Below are positions 13,499 to 16,805 of a stretch of DNA of 64,000 nt, in pieces (the first letter of the stretch is position 1; every line of letters starts with the position of its first letter). A program made the position numbers and the translations under genes. The DNA lies in NCBI RefSeq assembly GCF_044324785.1, contig NZ_CP172127.1. The stretch is one strand, 5' to 3'. Under the pieces are notes generated by a model. That model worked only from the letters and a program-made list of their open reading frames with translations, was not told the origin of the DNA and searched no databases. The stretch is from Escherichia coli. GTDB taxonomy: Bacteria; Pseudomonadota; Gammaproteobacteria; Enterobacterales; Enterobacteriaceae.

Positions 13499-14272
13499 AT
13501 GATAAAACGGACGTTATTAGCGGCGGTCATTTTTAGCGCATTGCCCGCTTATGCCGGGTTAACTTCCATTACCGCGGGCTACGATTTCACCGATTATTCT
13601 GGCGATCATGGCAACCGTAATTTAGCGTATGCTGAACTGGTGGCGAAAGTTGAAAACGCAACGCTGCTTTTTAATCTTTCCCAGGGGCGTCGTGATTATG
13701 AAACTGAACATTTCAATGCCACTCGCGGTCAGGGTGCGGTCTGGTATAAATGGAATAACTGGCTGACAACCCGAACGGGTATTGCCTTTGCGGATAATAC
13801 GCCGGTCTTTGCCCGCCAGGATTTTCGTCAGGATATTAACCTGGCACTGTTGCCAAAAACGCTTTTCACGACCGGTTATCGCTACACGAAATATTACGAT
13901 GATGTCGAAGTCGATGCCTGGCAAGGCGGCGTATCACTCTATACTGGCCCGGTGATCACCAGCTATCGCTATACCCATTATGACTCCAGCGATGCAGGTG
14001 GTAGTTACAGCAATATGATTTCCGTGCGTCTGAATGACCCCCGCGGCACTGGTTATACTCAACTATGGCTAAGCCGCGGCACAGGTGCTTACACCTATGA
14101 CTGGACGCCAGAAACACGCTACGGCAGCATGAAGAGCGTCAGTTTGCAACGTATTCAACCGCTGACTGAGCAACTTAATCTCGGGCTGACGGCAGGTAAA
14201 GTGTGGTACGACACCCCAACCGATGATTATAACGGTCTGCAACTTGCAGCCCATCTGACCTGGAAATTCTGA
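13499..14272 (+). CDS. yaiO: Outer-membrane beta-barrel protein YaiO, 257 aa
   Basis: Signal peptide MIKRTLLAAVIFSALPAYA, C-terminal …LTWKF; AGGAG RBS 7 bp upstream; start 1 bp after yaiX stop. Confidence 0.85.
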   Translation: MIKRTLLAAVIFSALPAYAGLTSITAGYDFTDYSGDHGNRNLAYAELVAKVENATLLFNLSQGRRDYETEHFNATRGQGAVWYKWNNWLTTRTGIAFADNTPVFARQDFRQDINLALLPKTLFTTGYRYTKYYDDVEVDAWQGGVSLYTGPVITSYRYTHYDSSDAGGSYSNMISVRLNDPRGTGYTQLWLSRGTGAYTYDWTPETRYGSMKSVSLQRIQPLTEQLNLGLTAGKVWYDTPTDDYNGLQLAAHLTWKF

Positions 14273-14384
14273 TTCCTTCTGCCGCCCGCTATCCGGGGCG
14301 GCCTTCCCTGCCGATTAGCCCCACCACCTTTCCTCTTTGTTTTCCGACCACATTCACCGGATAAATTTTATTCTCCAGTGTTAT

Positions 14385-14433
14385 ATACTATAGGGGGGTA
14401 TGCATTGACATATAGAATACCCCCCCTATAGTA
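14385..14433 (+). promoter_or_regulatory. frmR promoter and operator: perfect 16-bp inverted repeat with G6/C6 tracts around the -35/-10
   Basis: ATACTATAGGGGGGTA (14385-14400) and TACCCCCCTATAGTAT (14418-14433) are exact reverse complements; TTGACA at 14405-14410 and TATAGT at 14427-14432 lie between/within them. Confidence 0.75.
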
Positions 14434-14460
14434 TATTGCATGCAGATGATGAGGTGCGAA

Positions 14461-14736
14461 ATGCCCAGTACTCCGGAAGAGAAGAAAAAGGTCCTTACTC
14501 GAGTTCGTCGTATTCGGGGGCAGATTGATGCTCTGGAACGGTCGCTGGAGGGTGATGCCGAATGCCGTGCCATACTCCAACAGATCGCTGCCGTTCGGGG
14601 CGCGGCTAACGGGCTGATGGCAGAAGTGCTTGAAAGCCATATCCGGGAAACGTTTGACCGAAATGACTGCTACAGCCGCGAAGTCAGCCAATCCGTTGAC
14701 GACACTATTGAACTGGTTCGTGCCTATCTTAAATAG
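14461..14736 (+). CDS. frmR: Formaldehyde-responsive repressor FrmR (CsoR/RcnR family), 91 aa
   Basis: Protein [30 protein letters not shown]…; RBS GAGGTG 5 bp upstream of ATG 14461. Confidence 0.9.
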
Positions 14737-14740
14737 CTGA

Positions 14741-15880
<1,140 letters not shown>

Positions 15881-15971: not shown

Positions 15972-16805
15972 ATGGAACTCATTGAAAAACATGCCAGCTT
16001 TGGCGGCTGGCAAAATGTGTATCGGCATTATTCCCAATCACTGAATTGTGAAATGAATGTCGGCGTCTATCTCCCACCAAAAGCCGCGAATGAAAAATTG
16101 CCGGTACTGTACTGGCTTTCGGGCCTGACCTGTAACGAGCAGAATTTCATTACTAAATCGGGGATGCAGCGTTACGCGGCTGAGCACAACATTATTGTTG
16201 TTGCGCCAGACACCAGTCCACGAGGCAGCCATGTCGCAGATGCCGACCGTTACGATCTCGGGCAAGGTGCCGGGTTTTACCTGAACGCAACGCAAGCGCC
16301 GTGGAATGAACATTACAAAATGTATGATTATATCCACAACGAGCTGCCGGATTTAGTAATGCAACATTTTCCGGCAACGACCAGAAAGTCTATCTCAGGT
16401 CATTCTATGGGTGGGCTGGGCGCGCTGGTGCTGGCGTTACGTAACCCAGATGAATATGTCAGCGTCTCGGCGTTTTCGCCCATTGTCTCCCCATCGCAAG
16501 TACCGTGGGGACAGCAAGCCTTTGCCGCATATCTTGGTGAAAATAAAGATGCCTGGTTGGATTACGATCCGGTGAGTCTTATTTCACAAGGTCAACGCGT
16601 TGCGGAAATCATGGTTGATCAGGGGTTGAGTGATGATTTTTACGCAGAACAGCTGCGGACTCCAAATCTTGAAAAGATCTGCCAGGAGATGAATATCAAG
16701 ACGTTAATCCGTTATCACGAGGGTTACGACCACAGCTATTATTTTGTCTCCAGTTTTATTGGCGAGCATATTGCCTACCACGCCAATAAACTGAATATGC
16801 GTTGA
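15972..16805 (+). CDS. frmB: S-formylglutathione hydrolase, 277 aa
   Basis: Esterase motif GHSMGG; position after frmA. Confidence 0.9.
   Translation: MELIEKHASFGGWQNVYRHYSQSLNCEMNVGVYLPPKAANEKLPVLYWLSGLTCNEQNFITKSGMQRYAAEHNIIVVAPDTSPRGSHVADADRYDLGQGAGFYLNATQAPWNEHYKMYDYIHNELPDLVMQHFPATTRKSISGHSMGGLGALVLALRNPDEYVSVSAFSPIVSPSQVPWGQQAFAAYLGENKDAWLDYDPVSLISQGQRVAEIMVDQGLSDDFYAEQLRTPNLEKICQEMNIKTLIRYHEGYDHSYYFVSSFIGEHIAYHANKLNMR

Follow-up and report, generated by a model that had tools for sequence, protein, structure and literature searches.

The large inverted repeat in the frmR promoter is, we hold with high confidence, the operator-promoter of the frmRAB operon. It comprises two CsoR/RcnR type-1 sites in mirror orientation, at which FrmR would repress transcription until formaldehyde releases it. 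The repeat lies in the window, by which we mean the whole 64-kb stretch of Escherichia coli DNA that was analysed. In this element the recognition unit is each arm rather than the whole palindrome. The feature is already known, as had been surmised when it was noticed in the sequence: it occupies the same locus as the published tandem sites of the E. coli frm promoter (Pfrm), and both Denby 2016 (Fig. 6a) and Osman 2016 (Fig. 2D) describe the same operator.

A repeat finder returned a perfect 16-nt inverted repeat formed by 14383-14398 (ATATACTATAGGGGGG) and 14421-14436 (CCCCCCTATAGTATAT), with 22 nt between the arms, and a second register in which GGGGGGTAT and ATACCCCCC pair at 14393-14401 and 14417-14425. 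Two registers exist because the left tract is G6 (14393-14398) and the right tract is C7 (14420-14426). The original prediction had placed a perfect 16-bp repeat with G6 and C6 tracts at 14385-14433. A perfect 16-bp repeat does exist, 2 bases to the left of the one claimed, and the left tract is indeed G6. The quoted arm, ATACTATAGGGGGGTA (14385-14400), has no exact reverse complement because the right tract is C7 in the window rather than C6 (the length in MG1655 and most E. coli), and its best ungapped match on the opposite strand carries 2 mismatches. The true extent of the repeat is 14383-14436. The prediction seemingly described the canonical C6 form: in MG1655, CFSAN061763, WCHEC4533 and an O157:H7 strain, C6 makes the repeat perfect over 19 nt, with 15 bp between the arms.

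A chance origin of the repeat is excluded. With loops of up to 40 allowed, the 64-kb window contains no other perfect inverted repeat that reaches 14 nt, a 16-nt perfect inverted repeat appeared in 0 of 100 Markov-simulated windows, and the operator's two tracts are the only runs of six or more G or C in the window. Significance resides in the full arms, and the half-sites alone are insufficient. A loose half-site motif gave 1 match against 1.2 expected and is statistically undistinctive by itself; ATAC-N9-GTAT and ATAC-N10-GTAT each occur once, against about 0.5 expected for each. A motif search found no further FrmR-type sites elsewhere in the window. The parts of the element and the genes that follow it are listed in Table 1.

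Table 1. Parts of the frmRAB operator-promoter and the downstream genes, in window coordinates
Feature	Position	Strand	Remarks
Conserved AT-rich block, TTATTCTCCAGTGTT	14368-14382	+	directly upstream of the repeat; invariant columns in a five-strain alignment
Left arm, distal FrmR site 1, ATATACTATAGGGGGGTAT	14383-14401	.	core ATAC-TATAGGGGG-GTAT at 14385-14401
Inter-site spacer, 15 bp, GCATTGACATATAGA	14402-14416	+	contains the -35 hexamer TTGACA at 14405-14410
Right arm, proximal FrmR site 2, ATACCCCCCCTATAGTATAT	14417-14436	.	core ATAC-CCCCCCTATA-GTAT at 14417-14434
-10 region within site 2	14427-14434	+	TATAGT at 14427-14432 or TAGTAT at 14429-14434
Shine-Dalgarno-like GAGGTG	14451-14456	+	4 nt before the frmR start codon; GAGGT kept in relatives
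frmR	14461-14736	+	91 aa; Pro2, Cys35 and His60 present in the translation; same start in the MG1655 RefSeq annotation
frmA, S-(hydroxymethyl)glutathione dehydrogenase	14771-15880	+	TIGR02818, 743 bits
frmB, S-formylglutathione hydrolase	15972-16805	+	TIGR02821, 400 bits

A type-1 site is defined as a single G/C tract, 3-8 bp long, between AT-rich inverted flanks that are spaced 6-9 bp apart (PMC3902906). The CsoR/RcnR-family architecture first proposed for the repeat holds for each arm separately, in that each is a complete type-1 site (ATAC-N9-GTAT, core TACT-N7-RGTA). Each arm contains one uninterrupted tract of permitted length, G6 in the left and C7 in the right, and both are flanked by inverted ATAC and GTAT half-sites. 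Site 1 also reads TACT-N7-GGTA at 14386-14400, so that its half-site spacing is 7 (TACT/GGTA) or 9 (ATAC/GTAT). This site is invariant in 16 Escherichia sequences and agrees with the site drawn in Denby 2016 (Fig. 6a). Site 2 takes the form ATAC-N10-GTAT here owing to C7, where most E. coli have N9 with C6; its spacing of 8 or 10 is one above the 7/9 of MG1655 and 70 related loci, and we counted this departure from canonical N9 against the two-site model. Two further marks of the class are also present. The repeat spans the -35 and -10 of an operon headed by a DUF156 regulator, and sites of this kind recur upstream of orthologous regulators (70 of 81 loci).

The promoter hexamers lie where they had been placed, with TTGACA bracketed by the repeat and TATAGT overlapped by it. 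The TTGACA-TATAGT spacer is 16 bp here and 15 in K-12, while the alternative TTGACA-TAGTAT pair is separated by 18 bp here and 17 in K-12. Converting the repeat centre at -29 (Denby 2016) to window coordinates predicts a transcription start at about 14439-14441. Counted from this start, site 1 extends from about -55 to -39, ahead of the -35, and site 2 from about -23 to -6, across the spacer and the -10. The repeat ends 25 bp before frmR. Genomic SELEX with sigma-70 holoenzyme yielded a peak in the frmR-yaiO spacer, with the promoter given as TTGACA-15-TATAGT (Shimada 2014, PMC3946193); that the holoenzyme alone binds this spacer counts in favour of an operator-promoter. On the upstream side, O157 and some other strains (seen in O157:H7 strain 611 and at locus L006) differ from window positions 14330-14370, with fbpC instead of yaiO, and become homologous again some 25-30 bp before the left arm. 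The AT-rich block is retained in O157, where fbpC replaces yaiO. What is conserved is hence the operator together with this short AT-rich block.

The adjacent gene encodes FrmR. Its product matches the NCBIfam equivalog NF008464 at 189 bits (cutoff 133) and PDB 5LBM over residues 1-91 (4e-55), scores 68 bits against the RcnR model, and combines this full-length match above a curated cutoff with the three residues noted in Table 1. With frmA and frmB following, and with published binding and repression at Pfrm, the proposal that the repeat is the FrmR operator controlling frmRAB is well founded. The gene yaiO lies upstream of the operator on the same strand, and the MG1655 RefSeq annotation agrees on this context. 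Translation from an in-frame ATG at 14440 would make frmR 7 codons longer (a 98-aa ORF); this ATG has no Shine-Dalgarno sequence and roughly coincides with the predicted transcription start. The start annotated at 14461 yields the N-terminal Pro2 that the sensing chemistry requires, and by mass spectrometry mature FrmR has no N-terminal Met (Denby 2016, PMC5146963).

Published experiments bear directly on this locus. Denby 2016 (Sci Rep 6:38879, PMC5146963) interpreted the large Pfrm inverted repeat as tandem type-I FrmR sites, with ATAC and GTAT around G/C-rich tracts, and reported that FrmR binds Pfrm DNA with a Kd of about 220 nM, that formaldehyde dissociates the complex, that FrmR represses in vitro, and that sensing occurs through a Pro2-Cys35 methylene bridge. 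The window shares with that promoter the locus, a repeat centred near -29 and two ATAC/GTAT-flanked G/C-rich sites; it differs in having C7 rather than C6, N10 rather than N9, two registers, and a -35/-10 spacer longer by 1 bp. A 2024 study (PMC11127321) equipped the promoter J23100 with ATAC-N9-GTAT sites, both in its spacer and upstream of its -35, and these conferred FrmR-dependent repression that aldehyde relieved. In the same study, a truncated PfrmR that kept both sites and had the upstream DNA removed lost repression.

The closest relatives of this operator are those of Salmonella FrmR and of RcnR. Osman 2016 (PMC5016687) aligned the E. coli and Salmonella frm promoters and marked their G/C tracts and T/A-rich repeats. 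Salmonella Typhimurium frmRA (Osman 2015, 2016) likewise has a C6 tract within a T/A-rich inverted repeat upstream of frmR. There, too, formaldehyde weakens binding and the flank is required, since mutation of one flank of the Salmonella site abolished binding (Osman 2016, PMC5016687). Salmonella differs in that it has a single site that takes two FrmR tetramers (Osman 2015), an FrmR that is 52% identical, another genomic position, and no frmB (PMC5016687). The RcnR operator, as Iwig and Chivers 2009 are summarized in PMC3902906 and PMC5146963, consists of tandem TACT-G6-N-AGTA sites, each bound by a single tetramer. E. coli RcnR (rcnR-rcnA) shares with the present element TACT-N7-AGTA half-sites and their spacing, a G6 tract, a tandem arrangement over the promoter and a DUF156 regulator. 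The FrmR sites, however, are mirrored and about 32 bp apart centre to centre, whereas the RcnR sites are direct and 19 bp apart; the inner sequence is TATAG plus a G-tract for FrmR and G6-N for RcnR; and the effector is formaldehyde for FrmR and Ni/Co for RcnR.

Footprint data exist for RcnR, whereas our literature search found no base-resolution footprint of FrmR, and the PDB sequence matches included no complex of FrmR or of another CsoR-family protein with DNA. The assignment of the FrmR sites consequently draws on binding to Pfrm fragments, on transplanted sites and on conservation, and we infer the exact base contacts and the stoichiometry on E. coli Pfrm. Base-level mutational data would come from the sort-seq work on Pfrm of Rohlhill et al. 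2017 and from Woolston et al. 2018.

In the mechanism that we propose, one FrmR tetramer probably sits on each site, the G/C tract being recognized, we infer, by DNA shape. Site 1 would be occupied just upstream of the -35, and the protein on site 2 would fill the spacer and cover the -10, so that bound FrmR may exclude sigma-70 RNA polymerase from the promoter by occlusion. Formaldehyde would cross-link Pro2 to Cys35 between subunits and reshape the DNA-binding face; FrmR would then depart, and frmR-frmA-frmB would be transcribed. Since the repressor's own gene comes first in the operon, this amounts to negative autoregulation. One tetramer per arm is uncertain, since Salmonella FrmR puts two tetramers on a single C6 site. 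Flanking DNA may also be needed, as in RcnR wrapping, given that the truncated PfrmR lost repression (PMC11127321).

Conservation indicates which part of the palindrome is the recognized object. We scanned one genome per species and read 130 bp upstream of each of 80 loci with FrmR relatives (52-100% identity; 81 loci with the window included), ranging from Escherichia to Brucella, Lysobacter and Pseudorhodoferax. TACY-N7-RGTA occurs within 200 bp upstream of the initiation codon in 70 of the 81, usually 27-56 bp before the ATG, and in several of the others the spacing is N6 or the half-sites are altered. The typical proximal site reads ATACT-C4/5-N-ATAGTAT, has the geometry of the RcnR site and overlaps the likely -10. 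This proximal site is near-universal upstream of frmR relatives across Proteobacteria, while a distal second site is restricted to one set of Enterobacterales, Aeromonas and Deefgea (some 19-22 loci, according to half-site strictness). In these tandem loci TTGAC, TTGAT or TTGCA always begins 3-4 nt past site 1, and the sites lie 32-35 bp apart centre to centre, or 39.5 bp in one group (Citrobacter, Klebsiella and Maribrevibacterium). The arms are fully complementary in most Escherichia and in the Edwardsiella-plasmid type (GTGGAG/CTCCAC); complementarity falls to 10/17 in Erwinia and 11/17 in Deefgea, both with intact half-sites. Since the half-sites stay intact where the arms are not complementary, what is conserved is each site by itself. 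The large palindrome consists of two such sites placed as mirror images, and its perfection is a property of particular lineages.

These comparisons also bear on how the two arms are bound. One tetramer, or a fixed higher-order complex, could bridge both arms with two faces, making the whole palindrome the unit and bending the spacer around the protein. Denby 2016 (PMC5146963) raised this idea for sites about 31 bp apart, compared with 19 bp at rcnR-rcnA, and the perfect symmetry of the arms in E. coli would suit it. We nevertheless regard bridging as very unlikely. Most frmR-type promoters carry the proximal site only, so that one site suffices in most lineages; the range of centre-to-centre distances among tandem loci amounts to roughly one third of a helical turn, which argues against a rigid bridged geometry; and a 15-bp spacer would have to bend to an extreme degree.

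Several relatives have unusual upstream regions. Near-identical or identical sequences precede frmR in unrelated genera and on a plasmid, namely in a Citrobacter freundii MAG, Klebsiella grimontii and Maribrevibacterium harenarium (L010, L013 and L015), on an Edwardsiella anguillarum plasmid (L012), and at loci L014 and L022. This sharing suggests mobile formaldehyde-resistance modules. In the Citrobacter freundii group the distal site reads ATAC-N10-GTAT and the two sites are separated by 22 bp, and the 39.5-bp variant of Citrobacter, Klebsiella and Maribrevibacterium is apparently mobile. In relatives from Lysobacter and other Xanthomonadales (L034, L038-L040, L057, L060 and L082), ATACTCCCCCCCACT directly abuts the ATG (ATACTCCCCCCCACTATGCC). 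A site so placed would overlap the start codon, which may indicate that the frmR mRNA is leaderless or has a very short leader, the right half-site being a variant one.

An inverted repeat of this size could also act as a nucleic-acid structure rather than a protein site, either as a cruciform or as an RNA hairpin causing termination or attenuation of transcripts that run on from yaiO. Folding of the single strand gives -15.4 kcal/mol (z = -4.0 relative to shuffled sequences), and the repeat lies 111 bp downstream of the yaiO stop. We found no terminator-like site in 14100-14900, however. The right arm is followed by TGCATGCAGATG and not by a T-run, so that the combination of G+C-rich stem-loop and T-run that marks an intrinsic terminator is absent; most of the repeat lies upstream of the predicted transcription start; and the Rfam matches are sub-threshold miRNA precursors, an artefact of any long hairpin. 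Covariation is weak, with 3 double-change pairs that all fall inside Escherichia and a score reached by 24 of 500 shuffles, and we rejected the arms as a base-paired helix on this ground. Because Erwinia and Deefgea retain the motif without arm complementarity, the evidence favours protein recognition of each site over a hairpin, which we consider highly improbable. Just past the yaiO stop, at 14283-14304, a separate G+C-rich sequence (GCCGCCCGCTATCCGGGGCGGC) is hairpin-like and has no T-run, and the terminator scan made no call there; it may form a structure at the 3' end of yaiO.

Within E. coli, the arms of the operator-promoter are invariant and the spacer is polymorphic. The region is matched in 5,415 of 5,426 complete genomes. 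Over 231 bp no complete genome is identical to the window, the best reaching 99.1%, and the window's 70-bp operator is found exactly in 3 of 5,152 genomes (WP5-S17-ESBL-10, ETEC1716 and B-2207). G6/C6 is retained in about 99.5% of genomes. E1620 carries C7 on another background, and other tract variants comprise G7 in at least 9 records (including strain 536), G5 in at least 11 and C5 in at least 2 (including K-12 DHB4), all lower bounds that come from exact-match queries with one sequence background each. C7 lengthens both site 2 and the -35/-10 spacer by 1 bp, a change predicted to weaken repression and perhaps to strengthen the promoter. This allele may be a real product of slippage or a homopolymer sequencing error.

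In one genome, FJ_Ec_21 (NZ_CP143627.1, 3528725-3528897; 1 of 5,153 records), the 15-bp spacer is precisely inverted (TCTATATGTCAATGC), which places the TTGACA -35 on the opposite strand of the segment equivalent to window positions 14402-14416. Because the arms are identical, TTGACA-15-TATAGT here points away from frmRAB and towards yaiO. The inversion looks like a template switch at the palindrome.

With perfect arms built around homopolymer tracts, the operator-promoter could be mutationally labile, with ±1 slippage and template-switch inversion of the spacer producing rare heritable variants of altered formaldehyde detoxification. We give this proposal a small chance of being correct. If it were true, a single ±1 slippage would shift half-site and -35/-10 spacing together, a spacer inversion would turn TTGACA-15-TATAGT away from frmRAB, and natural variants such as the window's C7 allele would differ in basal or inducible detoxification.

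A further step would be to see in the same variants a heritable switch, in which tract slippage or inversion of the -35-bearing spacer sets frmRAB up, down or off in subpopulations. The rare ±1 variants at both tracts (G7, G5, C5 and C7) and the precise inversion in FJ_Ec_21 speak for a switch, but such variants make up about 0.5% of some 5,000 genomes, some of them perhaps being sequencing errors in homopolymers, a tract of 6-7 is short by the standards of phase variation, the adjoining genes are yaiO and frmRAB with no recombinase, and the inversion is a single event in 5,153 records; we give the switch next to no weight. A recombinase-driven invertible promoter of the fimS type was considered and rejected, there being no recombinase among the adjoining genes and the segment measuring only 15 bp.

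The formaldehyde-detoxification operon of E. coli is controlled at this operator-promoter of two mirrored type-1 sites, and widely used formaldehyde biosensors are built on it; for both reasons its anatomy matters in practice. To the published description our analysis adds the corrected G6/C7 sequence for this window. It adds population data that show strong retention of G6/C6, rare ±1 variants and one spacer inversion. It also adds a survey in which the proximal TACT-N7-AGTA site is near-universal for FrmR-type regulators, the mirrored second site being a lineage-specific addition.
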